From: a virus
Taxonomy: Duplodnaviria; Caudoviricetes
Direction: 5' to 3' (one strand)
Virus record (IMG/VR): IMGVR_UViG_3300043436_003045
Location: 1 to 36,077 of that record
Length of the DNA stretch: 36,077 bases
Under the pieces are notes generated by a model. It searched no databases. It was not told the origin of the DNA and worked only from the letters and a program-made list of their open reading frames with translations. A program made the translations under genes and the position numbers. This document shows, one piece after another, positions 10,795 through 36,077 of the stretch. The stretch's first letter is position 1; the number at the start of each line of letters is the position of its first letter.

Positions 10795-11409
10795 TCACTT
10801 CTGACCTCTGACGATCAAGCTCACATAGGTCTGGTCGCAGCCGAAGCGTTCGGCCAACTGCTGTTGGGTGAACTGGCCCGTCTCGTACAGCGCACGCATC
10901 TGGGCCCTCTGGTCATCGCTGACCTTTGGGCGCAGGTTGCGCGAGCCTTTCGGGCGCCCTGGCTTGCGGGGCGCAGCGTCGATCAGGTCGATTGCCGCGC
11001 TTGCCGCGTACCAGTTGCACTGCAAAGCCTCTGCCACTTGCCGCTTGGTCGAGCCAGCGCGCCACATCGTGGCGGCCAGCGCGATCTCTTCGGCAGTCAA
11101 CACCCGGCGGGCGGTCTGGCGACCGCGCTCCAAGATGTCGGCGTTGTTGTCCTCGTGATCGCCCACAAGGAGGTGCGCAGGGTTGCAGCAGCGCCGGTTG
11201 TCGCACTGATGACGAATGACCTTCCCGCGGGGGATTGGGCCGTGCACATGTGCGTAGGCGAGGCGGTGAGTTGCCACCACCTTGTCTCCAACACGCATAC
11301 GGCCGTACATGTCTTTCGTCACAGTCCCAAGCCAGTTCCAGCAGCCATTCGCGTCAATCTCGATGCGCTGCTTGAGTCGTTCAAAGGCGTCGTTGGCGGT
11401 TTGTTGCAT
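10795..11409 (-). CDS. Free-standing HNH homing endonuclease with C-terminal HTH domains (204 aa)
   Basis: CWNWLG...YG...HRLAY...HQCDNRRCCNPAHL...N..D is an HNH_3/His-Cys-like pattern. C-terminal TQQQLAERFGCDQTYVSLIVRG is an HTH. Confidence 0.9.
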   Translation of the reverse strand: MQQTANDAFERLKQRIEIDANGCWNWLGTVTKDMYGRMRVGDKVVATHRLAYAHVHGPIPRGKVIRHQCDNRRCCNPAHLLVGDHEDNNADILERGRQTARRVLTAEEIALAATMWRAGSTKRQVAEALQCNWYAASAAIDLIDAAPRKPGRPKGSRNLRPKVSDDQRAQMRALYETGQFTQQQLAERFGCDQTYVSLIVRGQK

Positions 11410-29729: not shown

Positions 29730-29971
29730 TCGAGATCGAACCCACCGAGCTGCCGGCCCTGCAGCGCCAGATCGCCGACGAGCGCGCGGCCAGCCGGCGC
29801 TGGCACGACACGCATCCGCACCCGCAGCACGGCACCGAAGGCTGCGCCGACACGGGCGACGAGCCGCGCCGCCCCCCGATGACCAAGGCCGAGGGCCGCC
29901 TGGTCTTCGCCATCTTCGCCGCCTCTGCCGCCGCGGTGCTCACCGCGCTGTGGCAGGCGCTCTTCCGCTGA
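29726..29971 (+). CDS. Small membrane protein (81 aa)
   Basis: GTGA overlap and a C-terminal hydrophobic helix. Confidence 0.55.
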   Translation: MIEIEPTELPALQRQIADERAASRRWHDTHPHPQHGTEGCADTGDEPRRPPMTKAEGRLVFAIFAASAAAVLTALWQALFR

Positions 29972-29994
29972 ACCCTCACCCCACTGGAGACCCT

Positions 29995-30903
29995 GTGAAC
30001 GCACCCCACGCACTTCAACCCCTGGCCGCCGCTGTGCACGCGCAGTCGGCCAGCGAACTCGACCGCCTGCTGCAGGGCGATTACAGCCCGCGCTACATGA
30101 TGGAGGGGAACAACCTCGACAAGGCGCTGACGCTGGCCACCCAGATGGCCGAGGCCCGGCTGACGATCCCCAAGCACCTGGTGGGCAACGTCGGCGACTG
30201 CCTGGCCATCGTCACGCAGGCGATGCTGTGGAATATGAACCCCTTCGCGGTGGCGCAGAAGACGCACATCGTGAACGGGACGCTGGGCTACGAGGCGCAG
30301 CTGGTCAACGCCGTGGTGCAGAACAGCGGCGCCGTGCGCGGTGCGCCGGTCTACGAGTACCGCGGCGAGGGCAACAGCCTGGAGTGCCGCGTCGGCTTCG
30401 TGCTGCGCCGCCAGGCCAAGGTGACGTTCGGCGAGTGGCTGAGCATCAACGCGCCCACCACGAAGAACAGCCCGCTGTGGAAGACGAACCCGAAACAGCA
30501 GCTGGGCTACCTGCAGATCAAGAACTGGGCACGCGCCTACTGCCCGGGCGCCATCCTGGGCGTCTACACGGTCGACGAGCTGGCCGATGGCCTGGCTGAT
30601 GCGGCCGTCGATGCTGCGGCCACGCCCTCCCCCGCGCCGGCGCCGCGTGCGGCCGAGCTGCCCTTCTACGCCATGGCCGACTTCGAGAAGAACCTGCCGG
30701 CCTGGACGAAGCTCGTGGCCGACGGCAAGAAAACGGCGCAGGCCCTGCTGGCCACGCTGAGCACGAAGGCGCAGTTCACCGAGGAACAGAAGGCCGCTGT
30801 GCTGTCGCTGAAGCCGCGCCCGGCTGATCCGCCCCTGCCGCCGGCCGGCGCGCACGACGACTTCGTGGCCGACATGGAAGCCGCCGAAGGGGTGCAGCAA
30901 TGA
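29995..30903 (+). CDS. recT: RecT-family single-strand annealing protein (302 aa)
   Basis: GTG 29995 with GGAG RBS. IPKHL.GN.GDCLAIV.QA..W.MNPFAVAQKTH..NG.LGYEAQL and WAR.YCPGAILGVYT.DE motifs. Confidence 0.85.
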   Translation: MNAPHALQPLAAAVHAQSASELDRLLQGDYSPRYMMEGNNLDKALTLATQMAEARLTIPKHLVGNVGDCLAIVTQAMLWNMNPFAVAQKTHIVNGTLGYEAQLVNAVVQNSGAVRGAPVYEYRGEGNSLECRVGFVLRRQAKVTFGEWLSINAPTTKNSPLWKTNPKQQLGYLQIKNWARAYCPGAILGVYTVDELADGLADAAVDAAATPSPAPAPRAAELPFYAMADFEKNLPAWTKLVADGKKTAQALLATLSTKAQFTEEQKAAVLSLKPRPADPPLPPAGAHDDFVADMEAAEGVQQ

Positions 30904-32597
30904 TCACGCACCAGCTCACCCAGGGCAGCCCCGAGTGGCTGGCCTACCGCGCGCAGCACTTCAACGCCAGCGACGCGCCAGCCATGATGGGCTGCAGCCC
31001 GTACAAGACCCGCGCCGAGCTGCTGCGCGAGCTGCACACTGGCGTGGCCGCCGAGGTCGACGTGGCCACGCAGAAGCGCTTCGACAACGGCCACCGCGCC
31101 GAAGCGCTGGCCCGGCCGCTGGCCGAGAAGATCATCGGCGACGAGCTCTACCCGGTGACGGGCAGCCTGGGCCGGCTCTCGGCCAGCTTCGACGGGCTGA
31201 CGCTCGACGAGTCCGAGGGCTTCGAGCACAAGGCCCTGAACGCCGACATCCGCGCGGCCTTCGCCGTGATCGACAAGCTGGTGGGCGGCGACGACACCTA
31301 CCCCGGCCAGCAGTTGCCGCTCTACCACCGCGTGCAGATGGAGCAGCAGCTGCACATCAGCGGCGCCTCGCGCATCCTGTTCATGGCCACCGAGTGGACG
31401 GCCGAGGGCGAGCTGGTCGACGAGCGAAGCTGCTGGTACTACCCCGACGAGGTGTTGCGCGGCGAGATCCTGGCCGGCTGGGCGCAGTTCGAGCGCGACC
31501 TGGCCGCCTACGTGCTGCCCGAGGCCGCCGCGCCGGCACCGGTGGGCAAGGCCCCCGACATGCTGCCGGCCCTGCGCATCGAGGTGACCGGCGCCGTCAC
31601 CGCCAGCAACCTGGCCGAGTTCAAGGCCACGGCCCTGGGCGCGATCCGCAGCGTGAACCGCAATCTGGCCACCGATCAGGACTTCGCCGACGCCGAGAAG
31701 GCCGTGAAGTGGTGCGCCGACGTGGAGAGCCGGCTGAAGGCTGCGAAGGAGCACGCGCTCAGCCAGACCACCAGCATCGAGGCGCTGTTCCGCGCCATCG
31801 ACGAAATCAGCGGCGAGGCGCGCACCGTGCGCCTGGATCTGGACAAGCTGGTGACGCGCCGCAAGGGCGAGGTGAAGGAAGAGGCCGTCGCCAAGGCCCG
31901 CCGCGCGCTGGACCAGCACATCGCCCAGCTCAACGCCGAGATCGCGCCCACGCGCGTGCCGGTGCCGGTGGCCGACTTCGCCGGCTGCATCAAGGGCCTG
32001 AAGAGCGTGGCCAGCATGCAGGACAAGCTCGACGGTCTCCTGGCCACGGCCAAGATCGCGGCCGAGGCCGATGCGCGCGCCATCCGCGCGAACGTGGCCA
32101 CCTTCCACTCCGAGGCCGCGGGCTTCGAGTTCCTGTTCGCCGACCTGGGCCAGGTGGTGCACAAGGCAGCCGACGACTTCAAGGCGCTGGTGGTGTCGCG
32201 CATCGCCACGCACAAGGCGGCCGAGGCAGCGAAGGAGGCCAAGCGCAAGGCCGACGAGGAGGCGCGCATCGCGGCGGCTGCCGAGCAGGCCCGGCGCGAG
32301 GAAGAAGCGCGCCAGCAGGCGCTGCGGCGGCAGCAGGCCGAAGAGGCTGCGCGCCTGGCAGCCCCAGCTGTGGCCGCGGCAGCGGCGCCGGCTCCGACCC
32401 CAGCACCCGCGCCCGTGGTTGCGGCCCCTGCCCTGGCAGCCGTCAAGGAATCCTTGACAGCTGAGCCCACGCCCGCCGACACCCTGCGCGCCCTGGCCGC
32501 CGAAGCCCGCGCGAGCCGCTTCCCCACGAACCCCAAGATGGGCCCGGAGTGGTGGGCCCGCTGGTTCGCCGCCGTCGATGCGCTGGAGGTGGCGTGA
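30900..32597 (+). CDS. YqaJ/lambda-exonuclease-like protein with long C-terminal coiled coil (565 aa)
   Basis: QGSPEWLAYR...ASDA..MMG.SPYKT, ASFDG, EHK and QMEQQL motifs. Confidence 0.9.
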   Translation: MITHQLTQGSPEWLAYRAQHFNASDAPAMMGCSPYKTRAELLRELHTGVAAEVDVATQKRFDNGHRAEALARPLAEKIIGDELYPVTGSLGRLSASFDGLTLDESEGFEHKALNADIRAAFAVIDKLVGGDDTYPGQQLPLYHRVQMEQQLHISGASRILFMATEWTAEGELVDERSCWYYPDEVLRGEILAGWAQFERDLAAYVLPEAAAPAPVGKAPDMLPALRIEVTGAVTASNLAEFKATALGAIRSVNRNLATDQDFADAEKAVKWCADVESRLKAAKEHALSQTTSIEALFRAIDEISGEARTVRLDLDKLVTRRKGEVKEEAVAKARRALDQHIAQLNAEIAPTRVPVPVADFAGCIKGLKSVASMQDKLDGLLATAKIAAEADARAIRANVATFHSEAAGFEFLFADLGQVVHKAADDFKALVVSRIATHKAAEAAKEAKRKADEEARIAAAAEQARREEEARQQALRRQQAEEAARLAAPAVAAAAAPAPTPAPAPVVAAPALAAVKESLTAEPTPADTLRALAAEARASRFPTNPKMGPEWWARWFAAVDALEVA

Positions 32598-33034: not shown

Positions 33035-33384
33035 GCAAGACCGAGGCCGGGCCGGTGGCGCAAGACTGGCTGAAGGCGCGCATTGACGAAGAGATGGCGG
33101 AATACAGCGCCGGGGCCTACGCCGACCATGGGAGCGCCCGCGACCAGCTTGCGCTGTTTGCCGCTGACCTGATGCTCGCCGCCCACCCGCCCGCACAAGA
33201 GCCGGTGCCCGCTGTTGGCTGGACTGGCAACGCCGATGCAGACCTCGCGCTGATCCTGCTGGATCGTCTGGACGTGACCGTCGAAGACACGGCGCGAGTC
33301 GATCAACTGGAGGGCCTTGTGCGCAAGCTGGCCGCCACCCACCCCACGCCAGCCGAGCGCGCCACCCTGAAAGGCCAGCCATGA
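33031..33384 (+). CDS. Hypothetical protein (117 aa)
   Basis: ATGA overlap and GGAG RBS. Confidence 0.6.
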   Translation: MSKTEAGPVAQDWLKARIDEEMAEYSAGAYADHGSARDQLALFAADLMLAAHPPAQEPVPAVGWTGNADADLALILLDRLDVTVEDTARVDQLEGLVRKLAATHPTPAERATLKGQP

Positions 33385-34046
33385 AAGAGCGCCCCATCCT
33401 TTTCAGCGCGCCGATGGTGCGCGCGATCCTGGCCGGCACGAAGACGCAGACGCGCCGGGCCATGCGAGACCAGCCATGCGAGTTGCTGGACTTCAACCGA
33501 GGCGGGTTGTCGATCAGGGTGCGCGGGGCGGTGTACCAAGCATTTAGCCCGACGCTTCCGCCTGTTCGGTGCCCCTACGGCCAGCCCGGCGACCGGCTGT
33601 GGGTGCGCGAGACCTTCGCCAAGATCGACGGCCAGACGCAGCCCTGGATCGAGACCGACTACCGCGCAACCTACTCCCACGGCGACCGCTTGGGCGACAC
33701 CCTGGGCGTGAAGAAGCGTTGGACGCCGGCCATCCACATGCCACGCGCCGCCAGCCGCATCACCCTGGAGGTCGCCGGCGTGCGCGTCGAGCGGCTGCAG
33801 GACATCAGCGAGGCGGATGCCCAGGCCGAAGGCTGCACCATGAATCACAACGGCTACTTCTGGGGAGGCCCACATGCAGTCAGCGGCTTGAAGCAGATGG
33901 CCACGGCATCGTCCGCCTACCGCGATCTGTGGGAGTCGATCAACGGCCCCGGCTCCTGGGGCGCGAACCCCTGGGTGTGGGTGGTCGAGTTCAAGAAGGT
34001 CGAAGGCGGCGCAGCCATCGCCAAGACCCAAGGGAGTGCGAATTGA
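33381..34046 (+). CDS. ASCH/PUA-like phage protein (221 aa)
   Basis: MKERPILFSAPMVRAILAGTKTQTRR, CPYGQPGDRLWVRET, IHMPRAASRI.LE...VRVERLQDISE.DA.AEG and NPWVWVVEF. Confidence 0.85.
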   Translation: MKERPILFSAPMVRAILAGTKTQTRRAMRDQPCELLDFNRGGLSIRVRGAVYQAFSPTLPPVRCPYGQPGDRLWVRETFAKIDGQTQPWIETDYRATYSHGDRLGDTLGVKKRWTPAIHMPRAASRITLEVAGVRVERLQDISEADAQAEGCTMNHNGYFWGGPHAVSGLKQMATASSAYRDLWESINGPGSWGANPWVWVVEFKKVEGGAAIAKTQGSAN

Positions 34047-34255
34047 TTGCCTGGATTCTGCGTAGGCTCGGCCCGCACTACTTGGTGCACCTGCTGATCG
34101 ACGGCATGCACGCCAATGTCTTCGTGGCCGGTTCGCTGGGCAAGTTCGCGGCAGAGTCACGGGCCAAGAAGCGACGCATTGTGATCGTGGGCGCGTGGCG
34201 CGTGAGTCGGCGCGATTACTTGGCCGGCACCAGCGCAGTGGCGGCTAACGAATAG
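34043..34255 (+). CDS. Hypothetical protein (70 aa), ends inside the first attC-like site
   Basis: TTG 34043 overlaps the upstream TGA, with AGGGAG RBS. Reads ...GCT AAC GAA TAG. Confidence 0.55.
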   Translation: MIAWILRRLGPHYLVHLLIDGMHANVFVAGSLGKFAAESRAKKRRIVIVGAWRVSRRDYLAGTSAVAANE

Positions 34256-34311
34256 GTTCCGCGCGACCGTAGGCGCAGCCGTAGGGCGTCGCGCCGACCG
34301 GGCAGTTATGC
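34243..34311. other. attC-like site a (69 bp, degenerate)
   Basis: GGCTAAC...GCGCGAC/GTCGCGC stem...GTTATGC. L boxes are imperfect. Confidence 0.65.
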
Positions 34312-34427
34312 AGCGCCCTGGTGGCGCACTACAGGAGATGGAAGATGGACAGGAAAACTGCGAACAGAGAATGGCGCGACGTAACGCGCGGCGCTCCCGA
34401 AGGCGCACCGACCGGGCGCACCGTACA
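34304..34427 (+). repeat. 124-bp direct repeat, copy 1 (start of cassette A)
   Basis: Identical to 35954-36077 (offset 1650). Confidence 0.95.
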
Positions 34428-34626
34428 TGCGTTTGCGCAGCGCGTTGAGGCGCTGGCGATTGCCGGCTGCGACAAGCGACACGCTGCCACTAAGGCTGTG
34501 GGCGGCCAGCTTGGCAATGTGGCCTTCAATCTCGCGCAGCGCGTGGGTCAGCCGATCAGCACACACGACGCCGAGATTCTGGACAAGCTGCGGCGCGAGT
34601 GGGACGCGGCTGTTGGTGCTGCATAA
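34345..34626 (+). CDS. Cassette A hypothetical protein (93 aa)
   Basis: ATG 34345 with AGGAG 7 nt upstream. The TAA stop is part of GCATAAC. Confidence 0.7.
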   Translation: MDRKTANREWRDVTRGAPEGAPTGRTVHAFAQRVEALAIAGCDKRHAATKAVGGQLGNVAFNLAQRVGQPISTHDAEILDKLRREWDAAVGAA

Positions 34627-34720
34627 CGTGGGAGCTACGGCCGACGCAAACGGCGCCGGGCTGTAGCCACAGAGACAACGTGACCGCCGTTTGCGGTCGG
34701 CCTTGAGCGACGGGTTAGGC
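34621..34720 (-). other. attC-like site b (100 bp)
   Basis: Minus strand reads GCCTAAC-5nt-GCT[C]AAGGCCGAC...GTCGGCCGTAGC-6nt-GTTATGC. Confidence 0.85.
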
Positions 34721-34739
34721 CCGTTGGTGGAGAAACGCA

Positions 34740-34931
34740 ATGACCGAGTATTACCACACCCTGATTGAAAAAGGCGGCAAAGTGCTGCGCAGCTATGGCG
34801 ATGTGGTCCTGGAAACGGACTACCAGATTCTGGGCCACAAGGACAACGAAGCGCAGAGCCCACCCGACAAGCAATGGATCGGCTGGAAAACGGTCCCGTA
34901 CCCGGCGCCGACTTTTGTTCGCTTGCCTTGA
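34740..34931 (+). CDS. Cassette B hypothetical protein (63 aa)
   Basis: GGAG RBS. Fills the space between sites b and c. Confidence 0.7.
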   Translation: MTEYYHTLIEKGGKVLRSYGDVVLETDYQILGHKDNEAQSPPDKQWIGWKTVPYPAPTFVRLP

Positions 34932-34933
34932 GG

Positions 34934-35029
34934 GCCTAACGTTTGAGCTAAGCCGGCACTGCCGGCACAGGAGTTGAAATGACCACAGAAAGTACGCCGG
35001 CAGTGCTCGGCTTGAGCGAGGGGTTAGGC
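34934..35029 (-). other. attC-like site c (96 bp)
   Basis: Minus strand reads GCCTAAC-CCCTC-GCT[C]AAGCCG[A]GCACTGCCGGC...GCCGGCAGTGCCGGCTTAGC-TCAAAC-GTTAGGC, a textbook attC layout. Confidence 0.9.
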
Positions 35030-35323
35030 CTCGACCGCGAAAGGCTAGCAGACGATGCTATGCGCCGAAGGGCAGAAAGGTTTGCCCACAGAAACCATAA
35101 AAGGTTCGCTGTTGATTGGATTGGAGAGGCAACGCAGAACACCCGGATTGTGTCGGCCGACACTCCGCGCGAAGCGGCTGTTATCGTGGCTGGCGTTGAT
35201 TGGGCAAAGATAGGGCCGCCCAAATGGAGCAGCAATCCAACATACGCGGGCACATACCTTGTCAACTGCTACGAGGTGGATGGTTGTTTCGGGCGTCGGA
35301 TGATCGTGACTGAAGAGGCCTAA
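34979..35323 (+). CDS. Cassette C hypothetical protein (114 aa), start codon inside attC c
   Basis: AGGAG and ATG 34979 lie in the loop of site c. The body is AT-richer. The TAA stop is part of GCCTAAC. Confidence 0.7.
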   Translation: MTTESTPAVLGLSEGLGLDRERLADDAMRRRAERFAHRNHKRFAVDWIGEATQNTRIVSADTPREAAVIVAGVDWAKIGPPKWSSNPTYAGTYLVNCYEVDGCFGRRMIVTEEA

Positions 35324-35383
35324 CGCTTGAACTAAAGCGGACCGGCACGCAGTGACGGGTCCGCGTTCAGTGAAGGGTTAGGG
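35318..35383 (-). other. attC-like site d (66 bp)
   Basis: Minus strand reads CCCTAAC-5nt-ACT[G]AACGCGGACC...GGTCCGCTTTAGT-6nt-GTTAGGC. Confidence 0.8.
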
Positions 35384-35400
35384 CGCCAGAGCCGAAGCGA

Positions 35401-35457
35401 AAAATAGTTTGCGTGTTACAAAATAGTTGTTGACGCTGGCGGCTGCTGTGCTACATT
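35401..35457 (+). promoter_or_regulatory. Cassette D internal sigma70-like promoter
   Basis: TTGACG (35430-35435) -N16- TACATT (35452-35457) with extended TGn. Upstream AAAATAGTT occurs twice (35401 and 35420). Confidence 0.65.
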
Positions 35458-35493
35458 AACACCCATCGCAACACGCAACCCGGAGCAAGCAAC

Positions 35494-35703
35494 ATGACCA
35501 CTCAGCAAACCTTCACAGTGGCCACGATCCACGCGCCTTTCGTCAAGTCCGCTTTGCGCGCGCAAGCTGTCGCGCAAAAGCAAGGCAAGCCGGCCTACGT
35601 GGTGCTTGGCTGCAAGGCGCAGGTTTATGGCCGCTTCCCCGGTGTGTGGTGCCATCGAGTGCATGCAGACGGTCGCGTCGATTGCTGCGTGATTGAAGCA
35701 TGA
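35494..35703 (+). CDS. Cassette D gene 1, hypothetical (69 aa)
   Basis: GGAG RBS, downstream of the internal promoter. Confidence 0.65.
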   Translation: MTTQQTFTVATIHAPFVKSALRAQAVAQKQGKPAYVVLGCKAQVYGRFPGVWCHRVHADGRVDCCVIEA

Positions 35704-35882
35704 ACGACAAAAGCAAAGGGGGGCGCCCCCCCGCACCACCCGGCCTGCGCCGGGTAAACGTGCCGCTGCGCCTGCCCACATGGCAGGTGCAGTGGATGGC
35801 GCAGCAGCCCGAGACGCCTGCGGAGTTGATCGAAGCCGCGCTGCTGAAGGCGCACAAGCTGCGCCCGCCGCGTGCGCCCTAA
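35700..35882 (+). CDS. Cassette D gene 2, ribbon-helix-helix-like DNA-binding protein (60 aa)
   Basis: GGRPP....RRVNVPLRLPTW...W pattern, ATGA overlap, and TAA stop inside CCCTAAC. Confidence 0.65.
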   Translation: MNDKSKGGRPPAPPGLRRVNVPLRLPTWQVQWMAQQPETPAELIEAALLKAHKLRPPRAP

Positions 35883-35961
35883 CGATAGTTTGAGCAGCGC
35901 CCGCGTGGCGCTGCCGGAGTGAGCTACGCCGCTGGGCGTCTGCTCGAAACGCGAGTTATGC
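35877..35961 (-). other. attC-like site e (85 bp)
   Basis: Minus strand reads GCATAAC-5nt-TTT[C]GAGCAG[A]CGCCC...GGGCGCTGCTCAAA-5nt-GTTAGGG. Confidence 0.85.
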
Positions 35962-36077
35962 AGCGCCCTGGTGGCGCACTACAGGAGATGGAAGATGGAC
36001 AGGAAAACTGCGAACAGAGAATGGCGCGACGTAACGCGCGGCGCTCCCGAAGGCGCACCGACCGGGCGCACCGTACA
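35954..36077 (+). repeat. 124-bp direct repeat, copy 2 (second copy of cassette A, truncated by the window end)
   Basis: Identical to 34304-34427, including the RBS and ATG (35995). Confidence 0.95.

Follow-up and report, generated by a model that had tools for sequence, protein, structure and literature searches.

In the accepted picture, an integron cassette is a top-strand gene with an attC site behind it, and its expression is driven by a promoter at attI. Single inverted cassettes are known, for example toxin-antitoxin cassettes with their own promoters, and the cassettes of the reverse integron of Treponema denticola keep the classical attC polarity. To our knowledge, the origin of new cassettes in integrons is still unexplained. 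On an attC site's bottom strand, the extrahelical bases sit opposite the 5'-AAC arm, according to the parts of Nivina 2016 (PMC5027507) used here. Clusters of attC sites also occur in phages, 21 of which were found by Qi et al. 2023 (PMC9892861, in the portions covered).

The window analysed here is a linear phage contig of 36,077 bases, 85% complete, whose right end falls inside a cassette array. Terminase, capsid and tail genes and a repressor-like gene are present; at 10795-11409 an HNH endonuclease gene adjoins the major head protein gene. Replication genes lie on the minus strand, RecT-like and RecE-like genes on the plus strand at 29950-32597, and the array forms the far end of this plus-strand early operon. 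Within this 36-kb, 85% complete contig we observed what a CALIN would show, several attC sites with no neighbouring intI. The sequencing runs that contain the array stretch are mostly lake-water metagenomes, and RNA runs contain only 8-17% of its words. Positions 34600-35400 had no match among GenBank phages, and none of the six genes of the array stretch fell into a Pfam or PHROG family. A search of the window for a replication origin found no clear iteron array and an uninformative skew; because no origin was located, a lagging-strand step is unsupported in this phage.

Polarity of the hairpins and their genes

Sites b to e have the AAC/GTT R boxes, L boxes, hairpin and 5-6 nt spacers of attC, together with its extrahelical bases. 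On the plus strand, site b (34621..34720; AAC at 34625, GTT at 34714) and site c (34934..35029; AAC at 34938, GTT at 35023) have spacers of 6 then 5 and unpaired bases on the 3' arm, G then G in b and G then T in c. Site d (35318..35383; AAC at 35322, GTT at 35377) has the same spacers, with C rather than G as its first unpaired base, while site e (35877..35961; AAC at 35881, GTT at 35955) has spacers of 5 and 5 and an unpaired G then T. The initial annotation had placed the unpaired bases of b-e on the plus-strand 3' arm and had read the spacers of b, c and d as 6 then 5, and both statements were borne out. By the definition in the portions of Nivina 2016 (PMC5027507) covered, the plus strand is therefore the bottom-type strand. 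Our detector found exactly these four sites in 36 kb and 0 sites in three shuffles of the window, and the folding z-scores of the sites ranged from -3.1 to -6.9 on both strands.

As a further check we trained a covariance model on the top strands of 36 bacterial sites, which our own polarity caller had oriented; 32 of them came from contigs called classical and 4 from the intI-linked loci L136 and L141. The caller was validated on bacterial intI, which lay on the strand called bottom at every locus with sites. On the minus strand the model scored c at 56.1, d at 46.6, e at 38.4, b at 31.6 and a at 24.5 bits; on the plus strand the maximum was 11, with 8.7 bits for c and 11.0 for d. Placement of the sites on the plus strand had been named in advance as grounds for abandoning the claim that the mRNA-sense strand looks like the classical bottom strand; with all five on the minus strand, that claim stands. 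We confirmed b-e as attC hairpins in which the coding strand is the bottom strand, the one of recombinogenic type. Site a (34243..34311, plus strand bottom-type), at the upstream end of the array, was missed by the detector and added by hand. A first scorer favoured reading it as an inverted, classical site (14.9 versus 12.9), but the covariance model and its likeness to bottom-type bodies overrule this; by these sequence measures it is an eroded attC with the same polarity as b-e.

All genes of the array lie on the plus strand. Gene 0 (34043..34255, 70 aa) reads in frame through the AAC of site a and stops in the spacer. Gene 1 (34345..34626, 93 aa, unknown function) has its own ribosome-binding site, and its TAA stop falls at AA|C of site b. 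Gene 2 (34740..34931, 63 aa) starts past site b. The loop of hairpin c carries both a GGAG (34970-34973) and the ATG of gene 3 at 34979, so that gene 3 (34979..35323, 114 aa) begins with a 17-residue head encoded by the hairpin, runs through its 3' arm and ends with TAA at AA|C of d; hairpin c and gene 3 together form a 384-bp cassette (34940..35323) bounded by AA|C. Behind site d lie a sigma-70-like promoter match (35430..35457, a consensus match only; there are 3 such matches in 8 kb versus 0.9 expected), gene 4a (35494..35703, 69 aa, unknown, with a best Atlas score of 0.79 that is a lead only) and gene 4b (35700..35882, 60 aa), whose TAA stop is at AA|C of e. The overlap of stop codons with TAAC that had been described for the array thus holds at three sites, b, d and e; it fails at c, where gene 2 stops at 34931, ahead of the R box.

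Codon patterns support these reading frames. Single-base codon changes were synonymous in 215 cases and non-synonymous in 49 for gene 1 (8 homologues), 36 versus 16 for gene 2 (2 homologues) and 29 versus 10 for gene 4b (3 homologues), and with one homologue only the pattern of gene 4a is uninformative. Where testable, then, the codon changes show that the genes are real on the plus strand. Gene 4b matched viral clusters at 0.97 and a CcdA-domain cluster at 0.91 (rank 24), and possibly encodes a small DNA-binding protein. Module 4 (35384-35882) combines the promoter match, the 69-aa gene and this 60-aa likely DNA-binding gene, a layout that resembles anti-CRISPR/Aca or antitoxin operons; phage G023 has two similar cassettes of promoter, small gene and regulator. 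Positions 35462-35515 differ between sequencing runs. In body b, a GTG-initiated frame at 34679-34709 stops inside the 3' arm, and in a variant of this body in contig L075 the GTG frame stays open into the following gene. Upstream of the array, in runs X1 and X4, positions 33334-33384, which hold the start of the gene at 33381-34046, run on into an attC 3' arm; the start signals of this gene seem to derive from a hairpin loop whose arms were lost in this contig. In contig L338, a similar C-terminal sequence ends at the attI junction.

At its end the contig begins to repeat the gene 1 module (35954..36077, plus strand); the repeated sequence is identical to 34304-34427 from one base ahead of GTT and is continued in contigs L074 and L081. 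Positions 34612-36077 are continuous in L074 at 99.7%, but a different gene precedes b there, and the order in L080 is a-1-b-2-d. Gene 1 is covered in runs X1 and X2 to a depth close to that of its a and e contexts added together, and none of the listed pieces from these runs spans the whole stretch. Gene 1 may appear twice because the assembly ran through two variants present side by side; sites b-e, and the order in which they stand, are independent of this question.

Junctions and exchange points

Near-identical copies of genes 1-3 and bodies b-e recur in other contigs in other orders. We compared junctions at 200 of 206 distinct phage sites, those with full flanks; site a had been entered manually. 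Where clusters shared a gene end, the next body differed in 9 of 10, and where they shared a gene start, the preceding body differed in 5 of 12; the cases clear by eye numbered 8 and 2 (Fisher p 0.008-0.03, for events that are not independent). Identity breaks 2-6 bases past AA| (11 pairs) and 3-8 bases ahead of |C (6 pairs). For example, exactly 384 bases, hairpin c and gene 3, are skipped in runs X5 and X6 (9 ambiguous letters), and the same unit is found in other neighbourhoods in L075 and L076. Near-identical modules are joined to new neighbours at AA|C, and on this sequence evidence the usual mobile unit is therefore a hairpin and then a gene, bounded at the position where IntI cuts the bottom strand.

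The R boxes tell the same story. They are perfect across 101 of 116 phage gene modules and within 57 of 116 sites, compared with 109 of 128 and 62 of 128 in bacterial arrays; the better match across modules is what shuffling of cassettes would produce. The unit thus has what defines a gene cassette, mobility between R' crossovers and complementary R boxes, and departs from the classical form in having its gene on the bottom strand and a body mostly inherited with the downstream gene. Stops at TAA|C occur at 101 of 200 sites, and AAC is read through at 30, always in one frame. Extended three-block inverted repeats at module ends were considered and dropped, since ungapped complementarity is at background past about position 11-12, with bacterial modules alike, and the duplex energy of -9.59 versus -9.31 +/- 0.2 gives such repeats no support (ungapped blocks only). 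In contig L394, an apparently empty module of about 15 bases lies between two R boxes just upstream of a gene 1 homologue.

A second exchange point lies at G|TT. Gene 1 is found behind body a or body e, with identity beginning one base ahead of GTT, and identical bodies part 4-10 bases past G| (12 pairs). Contig L078 equals L075 minus gene 3 and the following body, and in L074, L077 and L078 the 17-residue head of hairpin c continues in frame into three unrelated tails. At 50 of 200 sites a start within the body is read through GTT, in phases of 26 and 24 with 0 in the third. Diverged gene 1 homologues have about 8 kinds of body upstream and about 7 downstream; since the two flanks vary about equally, both arms exchange over long times and strand selectivity is not strict. 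Low-rate top-strand recombination by IntI1 is known (PMC5027507 and PMC4792948, in the parts covered), and our reading of the G|TT events is that they represent such recombination at a low rate, with short-homology annealing as another possible source. Two further ideas were rejected. The 124 bases repeated at the end of the contig cannot be taken to prove crossover at G|TT only, as AA|C junctions predominate, and exchange of the second strand at the L box does not account for the body swaps, as the 3' spacer moves together with the body. In L396, L398 and L399, upstream of the gene 1 homologue, the module starts at GTT with no intact hairpin ahead, which may be a secondary site or a decayed body.

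Reversed arrays and integrases in other phages

To see how widespread the layout is, we surveyed 74 viral stretches and bacterial and archaeal genomes (154 loci returned of about 990, of which L097-L175, 79 loci with flanks, were used and L176-L249 dropped). An L-box filter retained 57 of the 68 matches in viruses and 105 of the 140 in bacteria, and the strand of flanking genes was called by an amino-acid composition model. Of 53 viral contigs, 43 had bottom-strand flanking genes, 4 had them on the top strand and 6 gave a tie; the 47 bacterial contigs divided into 7, 33 and 7 (Fisher p = 8e-13). The search pattern behind these counts defines polarity, derives from this window and covers one hairpin family only. 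An earlier orientation test by ORF length with a strict detector, which the composition-based caller replaced, gave 32/10 of 43 for viral and 18/40 of 58 for bacterial contigs. All four classical viral records are classed as proviruses, and one has an IntI over the cut-off. The usual co-oriented pattern, which would have spoken against the initial annotation, was therefore not what phage arrays showed: they are mostly reversed.

Start signals inside the hairpin point the same way, with 33 on the bottom versus 3 on the top strand in 105 phage bodies, and 4 versus 11 in 119 bacterial bodies. Among bottom-strand module proteins of the relatives, 15 of 95 match PHROG families (only the bottom strand was scanned), including DNA methyltransferases, Mom-like and HNH proteins, so that the strand call is partly borne out by homology. 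Of the phage module proteins, 4 of 116 match bacterial loci, with the best matches in the reversed-type loci L130 and L159. L130, L159 and L168 are bacterial genome contigs with reversed-type sites, the first two sharing methyltransferase-type genes with phage modules, and are probably prophages or misbinned phage contigs. These sequence comparisons support the reversed attC/gene layout as a phage-wide pattern in this hairpin family.

The window contains no tyrosine recombinase and no intI gene, but the contig is 85% complete and breaks off within the array, at the end where intI is located in phages; one motif search of the window found no attI. IntI over the cut-off was found in 2 of 50 viral records, one of them beside a reversed array, in phage G023. 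This gene (L266:3923-4941) is split by an apparent frameshift, carries the IntI-type insertion and lies in the early operon after the reversed array and before a ligase-like ORF. Several complete relatives (G005, G043, G048 and G050) have no IntI over the cut-off. An alignment led by the G023 integrase found 329 relatives in viral contigs, and among the best 80 of these, a biased sample, attC was detected upstream at 38 intI loci. At 93 of the 99 sites upstream of phage intI, the bottom strand is on the intI strand. The flanking genes are on the intI/bottom strand at 31 of the 38 loci, tied at 3 and opposite at 2, with other polarity calls at 2. In 19 of 28 cases, a sequence complementary to the R box of the final module is found no more than 300 bases from the estimated intI start and is followed by a shared attI-like sequence; a few of these hits may represent an internal repeat of that sequence.

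In a quick tree of 107 IntI rows, 30 viral rows form one branch (SH-aLRT 91) and 36 viral rows and 1 bacterial row a second (SH-aLRT 95), with seven viral rows elsewhere; 66 of 73 viral rows thus fall in two almost virus-only branches, under thin bacterial sampling. Site b is 86% like sites in the IntI-bearing contigs L312 and L326, and the array of L278, which bears gene 1, ends in attI-like sequence. In that record, which is without IntI over the cut-off, the attI-like end is followed by an ORF that is excisionase-like by eye (L278:12980-13420). Given the complete relatives without IntI and the attI-like end in L278, the integrase is likely supplied in trans for many such phages. A Pc promoter driving the array from attI does not fit, as genes read towards attI in 31 of 38 loci and the window has no platform. 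A distinct, phage-adapted class of cassette, as first suggested for this array, gains support from the in-hairpin start signals and from the phage integrases with attI beside such arrays.

Explanations and comparison with known integrons

We put the probability at roughly three in four that this is a mirror-image integron-type cassette array in a phage early operon, its units probably cut and joined at AA|C by IntI on the folded coding strand. The observations underneath are the polarity, the coding strand, the positions of the natural junctions, the start and stop signals tied to the arms, and the phage IntI and attI downstream of arrays. Each unit would be an attC hairpin with the gene behind it, on the bottom strand of the hairpin. 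IntI would fold and use the coding strand, cutting and joining units at AA|C, with the enzyme provided in trans (by a host, prophage or co-infecting phage) or encoded at the unassembled contig end. Transcription would start at the phage's early promoter and at promoters that some cassettes carry, and would run towards attI and not from it. A rarer exchange at G|TT, by top-strand recombination, would swap hairpin bodies and N-terminal heads between genes. Several results count against this account: the contig has no tyrosine recombinase, several complete relatives have no IntI over the cut-off, diverged gene 1 homologues vary about equally on both sides, and the arrays showed no inverted (top x bottom) products, which free use of both strands would give unless they were selected against.

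The strongest competitors, both unlikely in our judgement, concern how units are exchanged. The hairpins might be attC-derived linker repeats between which phage RecE/RecT annealing swaps genes by short homology, with no current part for IntI. RecT-like and RecE-like genes are in the same operon (29950-32597), the contig lacks an integrase, 10-20 bases are common to the arms of different sites, and exchange is seen at both arms. However, the junction windows narrow to about 5-6 bases that always contain the IntI cut positions, one strand keeps the extrahelical bases and the spacer lengths (at 93 of the 99 phage sites that lie upstream of intI and in all arrays scanned by the detector), and where an array ends it passes at AA|C into sequence that is attI-like or plain. 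About as improbable is a phage integrase whose strand selectivity is slight or reversed, for which the two R boxes are equal and bodies and gene modules move separately. In 16 of 19 clusters that share a body, the genes behind it differ, body d is flanked on either side by four different genes, and the head of c with its three tails, the L075/L078 pair and the variation on both sides of gene 1 homologues would all follow. Yet the AA|C junction predominates among near-identical modules, attI joins at AA|C on the bottom strand, and one body stands before many genes in bacterial arrays too, through cassette creation.

Two other accounts we consider far less probable. Host cassettes inserted backwards or captured as a block, with the real genes on the minus strand or plus-strand genes that arose later by chance, would account for a hairpin family common to bacterial chromosomal integrons and for the long minus-strand ORFs that overlap each module, and TJE1 has a classical array in a phage. 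Purifying selection acts in the plus frame, though, and the 101 TAA|C stops in 200 sites, the read-through in one frame only (30 of 30), the phage-family matches of 15 of 95 bottom-strand proteins (the only strand scanned) and the 4 of 116 matches to bacterial loci, best in reversed-type ones, all speak against this. Least probable of all, the hairpins would now act mainly in mRNA, through a ribosome-binding site in the loop, stop/start coupling or processing, with DNA recombination in the past. The plus-strand RNA fold is 2.5-4.4 kcal/mol more stable than the minus, and the start signals of gene 3 sit in the loop of c; against it, units 99-100% identical occur in different neighbourhoods across contigs and runs, and therefore DNA exchange is recent.

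Beyond the mirror-image array itself, phages may run an integron system of their own, with virus-resident IntI lineages, a downstream attI and a mirror-image pool in which bottom-strand events move cassettes and top-strand events graft hairpins and fuse proteins in frame. Recombination at both R boxes would then make hairpin bodies, each with its ribosome-binding site and N-terminal head, and gene modules into separate parts. We hold this only tentatively, at short of even odds; if true, it would be a working route to new cassettes. A common design opposite to that of hosts would imply a separate phage pool of swappable accessory genes, the few named members of which are DNA methyltransferases, Mom-like and HNH genes. 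Inserted into a host integron, phage cassettes would go unexpressed, as would host defence cassettes in a phage. The arrays offer a site-specific mechanism for part of phage genome mosaicism, as well as natural substrates for studying IntI strand choice and how a hairpin attaches to a new gene. They also call for caution, in that for many hypothetical proteins of phages the start codon and the N-terminal peptide originate in recombination sites.

Among described systems, phage CALINs (Qi et al. 2023, PMC9892861) are alike in having an attC cluster with small genes in a phage, on a contig without intI. The portions of that study covered do not discuss gene versus attC orientation, which its figures and Dryad annotation file could show. 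Compared with its 21 phages, a single narrow pattern yielded 53 viral contigs here, and a single alignment yielded 329 relatives of IntI. The TJE1 array tested there has the classical orientation, while in P12002L attC1 is reversed (the stated bottom strand is on the coding strand) and attC2 classical. P12002L_attC1 was the only one of six sites without a verified IntI1 recombinant, and attC2 recombined (PMC9892861, same portions); this failure, at a Flavobacterial site of another family, counts against the IntI reading. In the literature covered, with most subscription journals and bioRxiv supplements outside its scope, we found no description of genes systematically on the attC bottom strand in phages.

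The reverse integron of Treponema denticola (PMC4909258, in part) is similar in that intI is co-directional with the cassette genes. There, however, the integrase gene is flipped, whereas in phages the relation of intI to attC is the usual one and the genes are flipped: phage intI is on the attC bottom strand with the sites upstream, as in bacteria, and the window itself is without intI. Unlike single inverted cassettes, which are exceptions in classical arrays, whole arrays are reversed in phages along with their translation signals.

The array appears to work like an integron cassette array, with sites of attC structure in a layout that is not that of classical cassettes. The attC sites of chromosomal and class 1 integrons (Nivina 2016, PMC5027507; Loot 2017, PMC5371416; both in the portions covered) are like the phage sites in their R and L boxes, their 5-6 nt spacers and their extrahelical G (or C) and T opposite AAC, and their cassettes share the AA|C bottom-strand boundary and the R-box match across the cassette. 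Betaproteobacterial chromosomal attC sites belong to the same sequence family, and the order attC-attI-intI along the bottom strand is the same in bacterial and phage loci. In contrast to bacterial integrons, the phage gene is on the bottom strand behind its own hairpin, often with start signals in the loop and a stop in the R' box that follows, it is transcribed in the direction of attI and intI, and the arrays show a second natural exchange point at G|TT.
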